A stretch of DNA of 34,174 nucleotides from a virus. This document shows, piece by piece, positions 27,568 to 31,707 of the stretch. The stretch covers positions 1 to 34,174 of the IMG/VR virus record IMGVR_UViG_3300045988_124209. One strand, given 5' to 3'. The position numbers and the translations under genes are program-made. Under the pieces are notes generated by a model. The model searched no databases and was not told where the DNA came from. It was given only the letters and a program-made list of their open reading frames with translations. The stretch's first letter is position 1; every line of letters starts with the position of its first letter.

Positions 27568-28068
27568 CTATTCCTCATATTTCCAAACAAAACCATATGC
27601 TGTTTTTCTTTCGCCTCTGCAACAATCATATATGTGGCATATATTTTTTAATTCTTTTTTTATTTCCCATATATTATTATATGTTTTTATATATTTACCT
27701 TTTGTATCAAATTTTTTTATTTTTTTCATTTTAATTAGCCCAGTTTCCAAAGCATGATGCGTATTGTATTTAATTGTACACCATTCTAAATTATCTATGT
27801 TGTTATTAGATGGATTTCCATCTTTATGATTTATAATTGGATAATTATTAGGGTTTGGTATAAATGCTTCAGCTACTAATCTGTGAACAAAAAATTTTTT
27901 GCCTTTTGAGTTTTTCAATAATGCAACTCTTTTATAACCATTTTTATCATCTAATAATCTTTCTTTTTCAAATTTGGTGTTATTATAATTTAAACTCTTG
28001 ACATTTCCTAAATTACTAATCAAATATTTATCCTCATAACCTTTAATCTCTTTCCAAATTTCTTTCAT
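27568..28068 (-). CDS. free-standing HNH endonuclease (NUMOD4-like plus HNH_3-like), paralog of the intron-encoded one
   Basis: ORF track. WKEIKGYEDKYLISNLGNVKS, then HRLVAEAFIPNP...INHKDGNPSNNNIDNLEW. Confidence 0.8.
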   Translation of the reverse strand: MKEIWKEIKGYEDKYLISNLGNVKSLNYNNTKFEKERLLDDKNGYKRVALLKNSKGKKFFVHRLVAEAFIPNPNNYPIINHKDGNPSNNNIDNLEWCTIKYNTHHALETGLIKMKKIKKFDTKGKYIKTYNNIWEIKKELKNICHIYDCCRGERKTAYGFVWKYEE

Positions 28069-28122
28069 AATACACCTCCAATATGTATTTATAGGGAAGA
28101 TTGGAGCATTCCCTCTATTTGT

Positions 28123-28151
28123 AGTATAGCATATTTATCTAAATTATACAA
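28123..28151 (-). promoter_or_regulatory. promoter-like TTGTAT-17-(TGC)TATACT upstream of the HNH gene
   Basis: Minus strand hexamers at 28151-28146 and 28128-28123, with an extended -10 TG. Confidence 0.45.
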
Positions 28152-29520
28152 CAGGGCATTTATCTTGATTTTTCCAATTCTCTAATAGATATCTGGTTGC
28201 ATCTATGTTGTGGTCATTTTCTTTTACATAAGCCTCTTTACCTGTTTTAGCACTTGTCTTTAAGTCATATCTATAACTTTCTAATTCCAATATTCCCTCA
28301 TCTTTACTACTATATATTAATTCGCCATTGTCCGTTATATGTTTTATAGAATTTTGTTTATATATAAAGAAATATTTTTTGTAGAACAATGATTGCAAAT
28401 GCTGTACTCCTTCTACCACCGAACCTGGTCCTTTTACTGCTAAAGAATGTGGAATATTGTCTGCTAATAATCTATTATGAAAATGTGTTGCTTCACTATC
28501 TAATACTATTGTAGTTATAGGAACTTGTCCATACTCACTTTTAAGATACAACAAGAATAATCTTAATTGCTTGCTAAAATATTCAGTTGTAGGGTTGTCT
28601 TGTTCTTCTTTAGCGTTATGATAATATATTTCTAACCTAATCAATACCCATTTCTTTTCAACTTTATTATATGCCAGTGCAATTGGTACAAATGTAGTAG
28701 GGTTTGAATTTCCGTAGTCTATTCCTATTCCTATTTCTCTGAAAGCATAGTCATTTAAATCATTAATGATGTTTATTGTTGTAAAAATTTTTCCAGTTGC
28801 AAGCACCCATCTATTAAATATCTTTTGTTCTCTTAGATTTCCAGGAGGGAACATTTCTAATACCTTTCGCATTGCTTCTTCTGTTTTTATCTTAGGGTTG
28901 TCATAAGGGAAGAAAGAATAATGCTTAGCATAAGGCTTCTTATCTATGTAATCAATCTTGTATGGATGATTTTCTCCACCCTCAACATTGAATGAATGTA
29001 TAGTCTTTAAATAAGGATGGTCTGCATAAGATACTTGTCTACCAGGAAATTCATTAAATGGCTCTCTTAAATTATCTTGCGAATATATCCTGGCACTTTC
29101 ATCTATCCACTCAAATATCAAAGGTTTACCTAATATCTTATTAAATGCAAGTACATTATTAAAACCAAAAAAATAGTATCTAATATTATATATTTCAAGA
29201 TATTTATCATCAGTCTGCCACCTTAATATATAATCTCTTCCTTTTTCTAACTTCATATCATCTAGAAACTTTTTTAAAGGTTCTAAGATGTTACCTTTTA
29301 ATGTCTCTAAACTCCAACCTGTTATAGAACCGAAATAAGTTTCATTTGGATTATAGTTATACAAGGCTTGAGCATATAAGATGCACCCCAAACATATATC
29401 AAAGGTCTTGCCACTCTGTGTACTTCCTAATACATATATTTCAGTTAGATTAGGGCTAATTATATCATTTAGTAATTGACTTTGCTTTTTTGATAGTGTT
29501 AGATTTAGACTTGTTTCCAT
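28144..29520 (-). CDS. terL: terminase large subunit
   Basis: ORF track, 458 aa. Walker A is GSTQSGKT and Walker B-like is LIFEWIDE. GGGAG lies 7 nt upstream of the ATG. Confidence 0.85.
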   Translation of the reverse strand: METSLNLTLSKKQSQLLNDIISPNLTEIYVLGSTQSGKTFDICLGCILYAQALYNYNPNETYFGSITGWSLETLKGNILEPLKKFLDDMKLEKGRDYILRWQTDDKYLEIYNIRYYFFGFNNVLAFNKILGKPLIFEWIDESARIYSQDNLREPFNEFPGRQVSYADHPYLKTIHSFNVEGGENHPYKIDYIDKKPYAKHYSFFPYDNPKIKTEEAMRKVLEMFPPGNLREQKIFNRWVLATGKIFTTINIINDLNDYAFREIGIGIDYGNSNPTTFVPIALAYNKVEKKWVLIRLEIYYHNAKEEQDNPTTEYFSKQLRLFLLYLKSEYGQVPITTIVLDSEATHFHNRLLADNIPHSLAVKGPGSVVEGVQHLQSLFYKKYFFIYKQNSIKHITDNGELIYSSKDEGILELESYRYDLKTSAKTGKEAYVKENDHNIDATRYLLENWKNQDKCPVV

Positions 29521-29701
29521 TTTCCAACTCCCTATCTATTTCTTCAATTCTTTGAGTAGTCTTACCTTGACACTCATTGCTTTCTATATCTTTAATGATT
29601 AATTCTTTCTTTTCTAATTTTAGTTTCTCTTCGTTAGATACAATCAAGCCATTACTGTCCTTGATTAAATATCTATCTTCTCTCAATTTAATAAACTCCA
29701 T
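29465..29701 (-). CDS. hypothetical protein (78 aa) overlapping the terL start
   Basis: ORF track. Confidence 0.5.
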   Translation of the reverse strand: MEFIKLREDRYLIKDSNGLIVSNEEKLKLEKKELIIKDIESNECQGKTTQRIEEIDRELENGNKSKSNTIKKAKSITK

Positions 29702-29710
29702 ATTTACCTC

Positions 29711-29953
29711 CTATTTAAGTCTAAATACTTGTCCATTATCAGAATACATACCATAGCCATTGCCTAAGTCTTTATATACTCTTCCATTATTTAATTTAAT
29801 TTTACTTTCCGCTGTTTTCGGAATGTTAGGCATAGCCTTAACAAACTTAGCAGGTACTTCTACTTTTTCATCTTGAACTTGTGGATTAACCGGCTTGTTA
29901 TCTAAACTAATAACATCAACCTTTTTCTTTCCAGTGTTACTTTTTTTTGCCAT
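29711..29953 (-). CDS. hypothetical protein (80 aa)
   Basis: ORF track (listed to 29992 from a GTG). The start is moved to ATG 29953, 6 nt after GGAGGTG, giving MAKKSNTGKKKVDV... Confidence 0.55.
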   Translation of the reverse strand: MAKKSNTGKKKVDVISLDNKPVNPQVQDEKVEVPAKFVKAMPNIPKTAESKIKLNNGRVYKDLGNGYGMYSDNGQVFRLK

Positions 29954-29984
29954 TTCTGACACCTCCTTTTTCTTTCCAGTGTTA
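29920..29984. repeat. 20-bp perfect direct repeat (cctttttctttccagtgtta) at 29920-29939 and 29965-29984
   Basis: Read directly from the sequence. One copy is coding (NTGKKK). The other spans the SD and 5' UTR. Confidence 0.9.
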
Positions 29985-29992
29985 TTAAACAC

Positions 29993-30680
29993 TACACTAA
30001 TAATATGTCTAGTTTTCTAAAGTAGTTAGCCTGTTAGAAATATAGTACCGCATTGGCGAACCTAACCTACACTTGCATATTATCAGTGTACTGCTTAATA
30101 GCAGTACTTATAAAGGGGTTTGGTTTAGTAGTGCTTATAATCAATATAAAGGTCAACTAAACCTTGCGTTTTAGTTTTTTCAGTCAGCAACTTCTTCCGA
30201 GACTTTTTAAACCATAAATTAATATGTTAAACTCGATACAGTCTTTTATATATTTTTTATAAGCACCATAGAACAGATAAGGCTTTAACAAACTCGTCAG
30301 TTCGTCTATTTCCATAGAAGTACTCCAGCATCAGCGATACTTTCTATAACCATTTGCTCCATTATTTCTATCTGCTCTATGCTACCTATAAAATAGATAG
30401 CACTTTAATAAAATTAGGATATGATAGTACTTATAAATGTTTACTGACACCCTAAACCATAGTCAGGCATCGGTTCTTTAAGTCTTTTACACTTATAAGT
30501 ACTATACTGATGATATAACTAGTCGTTTATAAGCGATTAAGTCCTCCTAATTAAATTAGCGGGCATATATCATCAGTATACTACCTATAAGGGTAGTATT
30601 CACAAAATTTGTATTACTTGCCCCACCTCTCACATTAATACTTGATATACTCATTCGCGGTTTGTATATCTCCCAACCTT
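29993..30680 (-). other. 688-bp ORF-free, G+C-elevated region dense in hairpins and repeats. Candidate large structured ncRNA or packaging-recognition region.
   Basis: The track lists no ORF here, and my longest reading is about 43 codons. A 15-bp perfect inverted repeat lies at 30503-30517 / 30566-30580. There are 7-bp hairpins at 30088-30107 and 30579-30598. About 9 copies of a YTTATAAG-type motif occur in both orientations. Confidence 0.5.
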
Positions 30681-31109
30681 TTATAATTCATCTATTGTTA
30701 AATTATACTTATATTCAAATAATTTCTTCTTTAATTTATAAACATCTGTTCTAACTCCTTTGGTATCTTCTACTACCCATTTATTATCAATATAATCGTA
30801 ATAGTAAAAGTCTGCTATGTAGTAAATAGGTCTTATCTTTTTACCTTTAGCATTTGTGTATCCCTCTTGAAGTAAGAACTTTTTTTGTAGTTCTAGATTA
30901 CATATATAATCAGTACTCTCTAATAATTCAAGGTCTTTATATCTCTGCATTTCTTTTTTACTATCAAACTTTATTCCATTGTAGATAACTTTGGTATTGT
31001 GATACTTTGTAGCATAAGGGCTTAAACCACTTGTCATTTTTAAATATTCTTTAGAAGAGTTTTGATATTTGCTATATAATTGTTTTATTTCTTTACTTCT
31101 TATTATCAT
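30681..31109 (-). CDS. DUF1064-family (PD-(D/E)xK-like) protein
   Basis: ORF track (listed to 31118 from a GTG). The start is moved to ATG 31109, 8 nt after GGAGAG. Motifs: GIKFDSKKEMQRYKDLELLE...YYIADFYYYD...VVEDTKG..T..YKLKKKL. Confidence 0.6.
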   Translation of the reverse strand: MIIRSKEIKQLYSKYQNSSKEYLKMTSGLSPYATKYHNTKVIYNGIKFDSKKEMQRYKDLELLESTDYICNLELQKKFLLQEGYTNAKGKKIRPIYYIADFYYYDYIDNKWVVEDTKGVRTDVYKLKKKLFEYKYNLTIDEL

Positions 31110-31458
31110 ATAACACACTCTCCAAATTACTATTATCTACTACTTCTAATTTTATTGTTGGAACTGATACCTTGGTTTTTTCTGGTTCTAATTCTCCTAT
31201 CGTTTCAAGGATAGTTTTATAATTGGAAGCATTACCTGCCATTGCTCCATGAAGCAACCCCTTATTAACTAAGTCTTGATAAGTTTTTCCAGTTGGCTTC
31301 CCATTAGCATCTTTTACCTCTGTTTCTAGAACCTCCATTAAAGCCATTTTAAAGGTTTTTTTAAGCCTTCTTACTTCTCCGCTCCTCTTTCCGCCTTTCG
31401 AGGCTTCTTCAATTGTTAACTTGTATCCTCCTGGTATTAGGTTATCTTCTTTAGCCAT
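31093..31458 (-). CDS. terminase small subunit (putative)
   Basis: ORF track. NLIPGG...EEASKGGKRSGEVRRLKK is the N-terminal motif I associate with Firmicute phage small terminases. It lies upstream of terL. Confidence 0.5.
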   Translation of the reverse strand: MAKEDNLIPGGYKLTIEEASKGGKRSGEVRRLKKTFKMALMEVLETEVKDANGKPTGKTYQDLVNKGLLHGAMAGNASNYKTILETIGELEPEKTKVSVPTIKLEVVDNSNLESVLYDNKK

Positions 31459-31503
31459 TGTATCACCTACTTTGTTATATCTTTTAATCTTTCATAATTA
31501 CAC

Positions 31504-31707
31504 TTATTTTTCTCTAGTGATGCCTTTTATTGCCCACATACAGGCTTCTTCTATTTTTGTCATTGCTAAACTTTTTTCTCTGCTATCTTTCAAATTTTCA
31601 AGTATATAAGTTGCAATATCGGTAAAAGCATTTCTCGTGTTGTCAATTTTTTCTTGAGTTTCTTCCTTATAAATGGCATTCATTAGTTCATTTGCTTTTT
31701 TTCTCAT
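31504..31707 (-). CDS. hypothetical protein (67 aa)
   Basis: ORF track. One-base overlap with the upstream gene. Confidence 0.55.
   Translation of the reverse strand: MRKKANELMNAIYKEETQEKIDNTRNAFTDIATYILENLKDSREKSLAMTKIEEACMWAIKGITREK

Follow-up and report, generated by a model that had tools for sequence, protein, structure and literature searches.

An array of exchangeable three-hairpin cassettes with variable structured inserts upstream of the packaging genes of a phage

The DNA described here, referred to as the window, consists of positions 1-34,174 of the IMG/VR virus record IMGVR_UViG_3300045988_124209, and the subject of this report is a gap of 688 nt in its gene map at positions 29993-30680. 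All of the genes around the gap are on the minus strand, and it is bounded by the stop codon of a DUF1064 gene (30681) and by a gene for a protein of 80 amino acids (aa). The gene order is a probable small terminase subunit (TerS, 31093-31458), DUF1064, the gap, the 80-aa gene, a 78-aa gene and the large terminase subunit (TerL). An earlier note on this DNA, made from the letters alone, had placed the gap between the DUF1064 stop codon and the Shine-Dalgarno sequence (SD) of the next gene, and this is indeed where it lies (SD at 29960-29969). The gap contains an array of exchangeable, sense-strand, covarying three-hairpin cassettes that belong to a widespread family and carry variable structured inserts, which are sometimes tRNAs. 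The related or cassette-bearing loci that were compared with the window are designated by L-numbers.

There is no open reading frame (ORF) of at least 60 aa in the gap, and no convincing one appears if TGA, TAG or TAA is taken as a sense codon; the longest open frames have 48 codons on the minus strand and 64 codons on the plus strand. The earlier statement that the gap has no coding signal therefore holds, alternative codes included. The phage has 26 TAA, 10 TAG and 7 TGA stops, and since all three stop codons are in use, code 11 applies. The G+C content of the gap is 32.7%, versus 26.9% for the window, 24.9% for the DUF1064 gene and 30.5% for the two small downstream genes, and this value is in the 94th percentile among 688-nt windows. 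The G+C enrichment noted earlier is real, but it stays below the 35-40% that had been claimed.

The minus strand of the gap has a minimum free energy of -182.7 kcal/mol versus -150.2 +/- 4.6 kcal/mol for shuffled sequences (z = -7.1), and the plus strand has a value of -155.2 kcal/mol (z = -5.4). The motif RYRCTTATAA occurs eight times in the window, six times in the gap and twice in the other 33 kb, when about 2.5 copies are expected in the whole window; none of 100 shuffles had eight or more. The motif is strongly localised, but there are fewer copies than the "about nine" that the earlier note counted. A scan of positions 29400-31600 for promoters and terminators gave nothing above chance, and no terminator.

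Folding, combined with a comparison of all of the gaps, shows on the minus strand of this region, from 5' to 3', an element of two hairpins (E0) and then a three-hairpin cassette in three copies (Table 1). A cassette consists of three directly abutting hairpins, namely a short 5' hairpin, a stalk of about 14 bp that bears an insert, and a 3' hairpin that is either short or extended by a second insert. The array in the window thus has three cassettes and five inserts (A, B, C, D and E), and all three cassettes have the same layout of 5' hairpin, 13-15-bp stalk and 3' hairpin on the gene-sense strand. Inverted repeats support cassette 1 (I1 and I4) and cassette 2 (I2 and I5). The structures that had been picked out by eye in the earlier note were recovered. 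The 15-bp inverted repeat 30503-30517/30566-30580 is present within a 30-nt pair that is 90% complementary, the hairpins at 30088-30107 and 30579-30598 both exist, the pairing described around 30125-30165 was found at 30122-30163, and the "related copy" at 30075-30091 proved to belong to cassette 3, as its homologous stalk.

Table 1. Elements of the cassette array and its bounding genes (positions in the window)
Feature	Position	Strand	Remarks
DUF1064 gene	30681-31118	minus	Pfam PF06356, E = 5.7e-27; PHROG "Holliday junction resolvase" family
E0	30603-30680	minus	two-hairpin leader element directly after the DUF1064 stop
E0 hairpin a	30644-30670	minus	
E0 hairpin b	30611-30641	minus	conserved G-rich loop UGUGAGAGGUGGGGC
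Cassette 1 (A-type)	30425-30598	minus	carries inserts A and B
Cassette 1, 5' hairpin	30579-30598	minus	
Cassette 1, stalk	5' strand 30565-30578; 3' strand 30505-30516	minus	
Cassette 1, insert A	30517-30564	minus	stalk slot
Cassette 1, third hairpin	arms 30489-30504 and 30425-30440	minus	holds insert B (30441-30488)
Linker sp1	30402-30424	minus	joins cassettes 1 and 2; absent unless cassette 2 follows
Cassette 2 (C-type)	30131-30401	minus	carries inserts C and D
Cassette 2, 5' hairpin	30381-30401	minus	
Cassette 2, stalk	5' strand 30368-30380; 3' strand 30268-30281	minus	
Cassette 2, insert C	30282-30367	minus	stalk slot
Cassette 2, third hairpin	arms 30257-30266 and 30131-30140	minus	holds insert D (30141-30256)
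Linker sp2	30108-30130	minus	between cassettes 2 and 3; CUAAACCAAACCCC...
Cassette 3 (E)	29978-30107	minus	carries insert E
Cassette 3, 5' hairpin	30088-30107	minus	
Cassette 3, stalk	5' strand 30076-30087; 3' strand 29996-30007	minus	
Cassette 3, insert E	30008-30075	minus	stalk slot
Cassette 3, 3' hairpin	29978-29993	minus	few nt upstream of the SD of the 80-aa gene
80-aa gene, start signals	ATG 29951-29953; SD AAAGGAGGTG 29960-29969	minus	strong SD; the array precedes the gene

The stalk was examined for covariation in 60 diverse units, in which the ends of the cassette were located with sequence anchors outside of the stalk. The stalk cells were paired in 98.3% (a figure that is partly so by construction, as discussed below) versus 63.1% after shuffling of the columns and 27-52% in slid controls. 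All 13 of the 13 stalk pairs show changes on both sides, with a covariation score of 0.92 versus 0.24. The two small hairpins behave in the same way. The arms of the 5' hairpin matched their own partner in 154 of 201 cases, versus a mean of 109 and a maximum of 121 when they were re-dealt among the units, and the arms of the 3' hairpin did so in 142 of 201 cases (mean 92 and maximum 105 when re-dealt).

The dimensions of the stalk are also constrained. In 161 of 206 units it runs for 13-15 bp without interruption (median 14), and its sixth pair is G·U in 153 of these 206 units, A-U in 27 and G-C in 22; in the window, G·U occupies this position in cassettes 2 and 3. Altogether, there are 233 G·U or U·G cells versus nine A·C or C·A cells, and 85 versus nine if the sixth pair is excluded. 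Because G·U outnumbers A·C, the complementary strand would fold worse. This G·U excess, together with the co-orientation of the cassettes with genes and the tRNA inserts, both described below, argues for RNA rather than duplex DNA, with strand-specific single-stranded DNA as a formal, less likely alternative, and the sequence comparisons point to a fold that is under selection as a sense-strand RNA. The real covariation on the gene-sense strand, along with the folding energy of this strand, bears out the earlier note's view of the gap as structured non-coding sequence.

The covariation of E0 is a separate matter. A second version of E0 in L001, L003, L020 and L026 keeps the loop sequence, and five of the six pairs in the stem of hairpin b are changed on both sides when the two versions are compared by eye. 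Automatic alignment and consensus folding of the two versions predicted 0 pairs, MAFFT having placed them out of register, and so the covariation of E0 is a by-eye reading. E0 occurs alone in the short intergenic region of L020. A pattern for its loop proved too degenerate to be informative in a scan of IMG/VR, as the 80 loci listed were mostly contigs from unrelated metagenomes.

A search of IMG/VR with the TerL protein provided 26 loci with 59-98% identity. The gap of the window was cut into the segments E0, A, B, sp1, C, D, sp2 and E, and the region was compared with these relatives by BLAST. The gap upstream of the small gene varies from 12 to 746 nt among the relatives, and each segment is either 95-100% identical or cleanly missing. 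For example, L017, which is 98% identical to the region in the window, has all of the modules, and L006 has all except D, so that its cassette 2 is without this insert. The pattern is A-D-E in L003, A-B-E in L018 and B-E in L022; of the modules of the window, L007 and others have E alone, together with different modules. Among relatives with TerL proteins that are 86-98% identical, A, B, C, D and E0 come and go independently of each other, and only module E (cassette 3) is never missing from relatives whose downstream gene is of this version. Since the segments come and go block-wise, the gap must be regarded as a string of independent units and not as one RNA.

In L023, TerS is followed directly by the small gene. 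This locus has both small genes and a TerL with 81% identity, its gap is 12 nt and it has no DUF1064, which implies that DUF1064 and the gap form an accessory block. The earlier suggestion that the gap is the remains of a mobile insertion that arrived with the DUF1064 gene is thus correct as far as the accessory block is concerned, but the sequence is not decayed, as the cassettes are intact and conserved. The deletion junctions lie in repeated hairpin-arm sequence, at TTATAAG(T/C)ACTA, in arms adjacent to linker sp2, between the window and L026 and at a TTATAA foot between the window and L006. These junctions fit an exchange of cassettes and inserts between phages by recombination in repeated or conserved frame sequences; the junctions between relatives gave no evidence for a transposase-type mechanism.

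Some of the relatives have other features in this region. At the start of the gap in L004, L005, L007, L022 and L026 (e.g., L004:5128-5330) there is a module of about 190 nt that starts with GGGGGCUAC and ends with CCCCCCGCCA. Its ends resemble an acceptor-like stem followed by GCCA, and it has an internal perfect T-arm, GGUGGUUCGAGCCCACC. The module is tRNA-, tmRNA- or Y-RNA-like and was called neither by ARAGORN nor by Rfam at the gathering threshold. In L014, L016 and L019 (e.g., L016:5010-5035), the end of a second DUF1064 variant overlaps with TGATATAAT, which resembles an extended -10 promoter and is directed into the gap. The L001-type loci have TAGACT-17-TATAAT at the end of DUF1064, and the DUF1064 variant of the window has no equally clear site.

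The inserts have a median length of 74 nt (range, 15 to about 305 nt), and 193 distinct inserts fall into 133 similarity clusters. They are not junk sequence, as relatives of inserts B, C, D and E exist in unrelated phages with 71-90% identity, and these are often found in the other slot. For example, insert B, which is in the slot of the 3' hairpin in the window, occupies the stalk slot in L122, L038 and L201; its hairpin shows compensatory changes (CUGAC/GUCAG versus CUAGU/GCUAG). Insert D likewise moves from the 3'-hairpin slot to the stalk slot in L096 and L109, and insert C, in the stalk slot here, is in the third-hairpin slot in L199, L076 and L205. Insert E lies within an A-type frame in L041 and L104, with compensatory changes in the stalk.

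Two of the inserts are tRNAs. L127:8921-9050 has a complete tRNA gene as the insert of a C-type cassette (Rfam tRNA model, 44.5 bits), and the upper 7 bp of the stalk double as its acceptor stem. In L162:1670-1830, the insert of a C-type cassette is a complete tRNA-Trp with an encoded CCA. Many of the A-type inserts look by eye like a compact pseudoknot, in which a loop AAAGGU would pair with ACCUUU beside the stalk. Neither ARAGORN nor the Rfam tRNA model found a tRNA or tmRNA in the window, and a tRNA/tmRNA scan of 23 related loci called no genes, with a tRNA-like piece in five of the loci.

The cassettes are widely distributed. In an exact-pattern scan of IMG/VR, the A-type junction (TAGGTAGTRTACTGATGATRTA) was matched in 92 contigs and the C-type junction in 76, and most of these contigs have no similarity to the TerS, DUF1064, small genes, TerL or portal of the window. 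From 5' to 3', the consensus of the frame is CACUAYCU-loop-AGGUAGUG, UACUGAUGAUAUA, the insert, UAUAUCAUUAGUA and a covarying hairpin GURYYU...RRYAC. A scan of one genome per GTDB species gave 29 contigs, nearly all from gut or rumen metagenome-assembled genomes (MAGs) labelled Bacilli, "Tenericutes", Erysipelotrichaceae or Clostridia; one contig is from Bacilli bacterium HGM10818. The MAG matches that were inspected are phage or prophage head and terminase regions. Profile searches of the 34-kb genome of the window found no further cassette halves outside of this locus.

The genomic context of the cassettes follows a pattern. They lie between genes and in the orientation of the late genes, typically ahead of terS or a scaffold gene, and the ORFs on both sides run with the cassette in 105 cases and against it in nine. 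The commonest upstream neighbours are DUF1064 (in this phage group), minor head proteins, small sigma-like regulators and HNH endonucleases, and the commonest downstream neighbours are the 80-aa gene, head scaffolding proteins and terminase small subunits. The usual sites are between a regulator and terS or between a minor head gene and a scaffold gene. In several phages of about 31-40 kb, a cassette of the A type precedes terS and one of the C type follows 5.6-5.9 kb further on, ahead of the scaffold gene; this layout is typical of unrelated phages and is seen in L030, L071, L077 and L088. Of the two cassettes of L030 (470-800 and 6050-6330), the second lies between two intrinsic terminators and the first has one after it. 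A terminator-like site occurs within about 120 nt downstream of 47 of 211 units, versus 15 of 211 in the upstream control. The spacing between a cassette and the start codon that follows it varies widely (0 to more than 600 nt). In about a fifth of 60 scanned loci there is a tRNA gene within 1 kb of a cassette, and some of these genes are immediately adjacent to it.

Several neighbouring genes of the window deserve mention. At the position equivalent to that of its probable TerS, the relatives have a 128-aa protein that PHROG assigns to the terminase small subunits; the 121-aa product of 31093-31458 (minus strand) has only the C-terminal 35 or so residues in common with it. The claim that the gap lies "between the terminase genes" is thus reasonable but unproven. 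The N-terminal part differs from that of the relatives (phrog_2412 and a weak DUF5681 match), an indication that the DNA-recognition domain was swapped. Positions 31504-31707 (minus strand), two genes upstream of the array, encode an Acb2/Tad1 hairpin-domain protein of 67 aa (Pfam PF24729, E = 1.8e-15), which is likely to be an anti-CBASS/Thoeris nucleotide sponge. TerL (in the area 27568-29520, minus strand) has 458 aa here and in many relatives and 533 or 591 aa in others, with residues 1-442 in common, and a free-standing NUMOD4+HNH endonuclease gene follows it at 27568-28068. An intron near residue 442 was considered, but the difference is a C-terminal variant rather than a demonstrated intron, because the match to the 533-aa relatives is confined to their residues 1-442 and the 458-aa form is found in several relatives too.

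A perfect 20-nt direct repeat, TAACACTGGAAAGAAAAAGG, is present at 29965-29984 and 29920-29939 (minus strand) and flanks the start codon of the 80-aa gene. The first copy extends from the 3' arm of the last hairpin through the SD, and the second encodes residues 5-11. L016, L019 and L020 have an equivalent direct repeat around the start codon with another sequence (GATACAAAGAAAGGAATTAAAATT), and the second copy is decayed in L008, L011, L017 and L025. The repeat is probably a recombination scar from the event that placed a cassette before the 80-aa gene, and it may have a role in alternative pairing.

The Rfam scan that the earlier note had recommended, with ROOL, GOLLD and introns among the models, gave no match. 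At the gathering threshold, Rfam 15 had 0 matches in the whole window and 0 in 11 related loci, and at E values up to 10 the region 29500-31200 gave only chance-level matches to snoRNA, miRNA and histone models. BLASTN of the region against 50,697 GenBank phages produced no match. Several specific identities were also considered and rejected. There is no Rfam match to a group I or group II intron, and the region sits between complete genes; the "two introns" that the earlier note had seen elsewhere in the window likewise find no support from covariance models, as Rfam has no intron of either group in its entire length. A hammerhead ribozyme was dropped because the CUGAUGA of the stalk is fully paired and the GAAA core is absent, and a mimic of a Cas9 guide or tracr RNA was also considered and set aside. 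AAAAAACUAA, as in a preQ1-I aptamer, occurs in insert D, but there is no Rfam match to this aptamer. A retron non-coding RNA was rejected because a reverse transcriptase is absent.

What might such cassettes do? The processing stalks of rRNAs and the intergenic RNase III sites of phage T7 are classical examples of a helix that is built from the sequences on either side of an RNA, and hairpins left at the ends of mRNAs can stabilise them. By analogy, we tentatively favour, at a little under an even chance, the reading that the cassette frame is a scaffold on which small phage RNAs are processed and presented. The array would be transcribed from the minus strand together with the packaging and structural genes, and the stalk, stacked on the flanking hairpin, would act like an rRNA-flanking processing stalk or a T7 RNase III site. 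A host endonuclease would presumably cut near the base of the stalk and free the insert as a stable small RNA, and the mRNA pieces on either side could then have their new 3' and 5' ends capped by the two small hairpins. A constant stalk length of 14 bp and a conserved G·U would allow one factor to measure and recognise the cassette. In the case of the last cassette, the capped 5' end would lie directly in front of the 80-aa gene and its strong SD.

The resemblance to T7 RNase III hairpins and rRNA stalks is that all of these are intergenic, sense-strand helices in long polycistronic transcripts and flank an RNA destined for release, which for two of the inserts in the family is a tRNA. The differences are that the cassette has a helix of about 14 bp, two extra conserved hairpins and two insert slots, and that its cleavage is only predicted. 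Also unlike the known stalks, the frame is near-invariant across unrelated phages, and the part to be released is hyper-variable.

A number of points weigh against this scaffold reading. The stalk helix has about 14 bp, or about 22 bp if it is stacked on the 8-bp 5' hairpin, and 14 bp alone is short for bacterial RNase III, so that the model needs coaxial stacking with the flanking hairpin. Since the distance to the start codon ranges from 0 to more than 600 nt, a general tight end-capping of the downstream mRNA is untenable, and the terminator-like sites that follow 22% of the units (versus 7% in the control) mean that the transcription units are not uniform. The sixth stalk pair of cassette 1 in the window is G-C and not G·U, a minority state that is also seen in the family. 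The high percentage of stalk pairing is partly by construction because the best-pairing 3' anchor was chosen among candidates, and many of the family sequences come from one metagenome and are mutually related.

The hyper-diversity of the inserts (193 distinct sequences in 133 clusters) would suit another explanation, in which the cassettes are genes for trans-acting small RNAs, such as anti-defence decoys or host-takeover regulators, and the frame only stabilises them or binds a common protein, with no obligatory release and no role for the flanking mRNA. Some of the inserts are conserved in unrelated phages, some of the cassettes are bracketed by terminators like independent "moron" units, the near-invariant frame and the conserved G·U fit one common recognition factor, and the window has the Acb2/Tad1-type anti-defence gene close by. 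We nevertheless regard this explanation as unlikely, if a serious contender, because most units have no clear promoter in front of them and lie inside operons with no terminator of their own, and neither target complementarity nor a partner protein was identified.

The positions of the cassettes suggest a third possibility, i.e., that they are cis-acting leader RNAs that allow read-through of terminators in the late operon, like the put RNAs of phage HK022 or protein-dependent antitermination sites. They typically follow directly on a sigma-like late regulator and precede terS, with a second site ahead of the scaffold gene; in L030 they are immediately upstream of an intrinsic terminator that needs read-through, and the enrichment of terminator-like sites downstream of the units (47/211 versus 15/211) is in agreement with this. 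The resemblance is closest for E0, which like the put RNAs consists of two adjacent stem-loops, with a total of about 65-70 nt, at the start of a long transcript; those of E0 are 2 nt apart and, in relatives, lie downstream of the promoter-like TGATATAAT or TATAAT. The likeness is one of layout, and no terminator follows E0 in the window. A put-like antitermination is attractive for E0 and for the terminator-flanked units. For the cassettes as a whole it is doubtful, since the array in the window is without any terminator-like site, three successive cassettes would be redundant, and an insert that varies from 15 to 305 nt and is sometimes a tRNA would be unexpected in an element that binds RNA polymerase.

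A further explanation is that the cassettes function as DNA, so that they would be miniature transposable elements with terminal inverted repeats, single-stranded DNA hairpins for recombination or priming, or hot spots for the exchange of modules. Miniature inverted-repeat transposable elements (MITEs), repetitive extragenic palindromic (REP)-type repeats and integron attC sites also have conserved inverted-repeat ends, a variable centre and copy numbers that differ among close relatives. The nearly identical frame in otherwise unrelated phages and the gain and loss junctions in the repeated TTATAAG(T/C)ACTA arms are in line with this explanation, and the G·T mismatches would be tolerable in single-stranded DNA too. 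However, the cassettes differ from these elements in that they follow the direction of the genes (105 versus 9), occupy a single locus in a 34-kb genome with no further copies, and extend their conservation beyond the inverted repeat into two covarying hairpins; the tRNA inserts speak for transcription, there is no transposase, integrase or other cognate enzyme gene nearby, and a target-site duplication is inseparable from the palindromic TTATAA foot of the hairpin. A DNA-level role is thus improbable, and a MITE or transposon remnant, for whose inverted repeat the stalk could pass, was rejected on the grounds of the single locus and the gene-tied orientation.

The two readings that the earlier note had listed first fare worst. 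A pac or cos packaging site with repeated small-terminase binding sites would be consistent with repeated motifs between a probable terS and terL, but it is very improbable because the region is missing in L023 despite the homologous TerL (81% identity) and the same small genes, the module content varies among phages with TerL proteins that are 86-98% identical, other phages have the same cassettes in front of scaffold genes and at a distance from the terminase, and the motifs "in both orientations", which had been taken for protein-binding sites, are the palindromic feet of RNA hairpins (the 3' hairpins). A caveat to the comparison with L023 is that the probable TerS of the window has another N-terminal domain than the TerS of the relatives. 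A single large RNA of the ROOL or GOLLD type (PMC12286853), which would suit a long, ORF-free, structure-dense region of a phage of low-G+C Bacilli and is likewise sometimes beside tRNA genes in Bacillota phages, is scarcely credible, since Rfam has no match even at E values up to 10, the independent modules of about 80-140 nt, arranged in units of about 130-270 nt, are gained and lost separately and combined differently in close relatives, and the fold is explained without long-range pairing between modules.

YrlA RNAs, in which a conserved stem made from two ends is combined with a variable or tRNA-like module, have a similar modular logic. A YrlA (Y RNA-like) match is in fact present near cassettes in L048 (1708-1819; 41.3 bits, E = 2e-7, below the gathering score of 69 bits); it has a permuted T-arm/D-arm layout and lies about 300 nt downstream of a tRNA-Leu that abuts a cassette. 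However, the window has no YrlA match, and the sequence of the stalk is unrelated to the YrlA consensus.

The cassette signature sequences were not found in the searched literature of 8 million papers. A survey of IMG/VR describes unnamed candidate structures that are consistently upstream of putative large terminase genes, as well as tRNA-like candidates (PMC10690425), and so parts of the cassette family may have been catalogued without recognition of their architecture. In a comparison by description, that text mentions no scaffold-plus-insert architecture. The family is absent from Rfam 15 and belongs among the intergenic structured RNAs and processing helices of phages, and there is a substantial chance that the design of a scaffold with swappable inserts is something new.

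In conclusion, the annotation of the gap can be corrected, as it is in all likelihood neither a packaging site nor a single giant RNA. Returning to the scaffold reading, we put forward, more tentatively still, that phages of gut and rumen Bacilli and Mollicutes-like bacteria share an undescribed RNA cassette system, in which a near-invariant frame would be read by one host or phage factor and would serve as a universal socket for the expression, processing or display of an open-ended set of small structured RNAs (tRNAs and pseudoknot-like modules) that are shuffled like gene cassettes; the window would then have a three-socket, five-insert array before its packaging genes. If this is true, the frame sequence offers a simple means of finding, in the viromes of gut and rumen, a large number of phage non-coding RNAs that lack annotation, with more than 130 insert clusters in about 200 units. 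The scaffold would also be a natural one for the expression of RNAs from polycistronic transcripts, and the 14-bp stalk with its conserved G·U would present a concrete problem of RNA-protein recognition in poorly studied hosts, such as RF39-like Bacilli and the "Tenericutes" MAGs.

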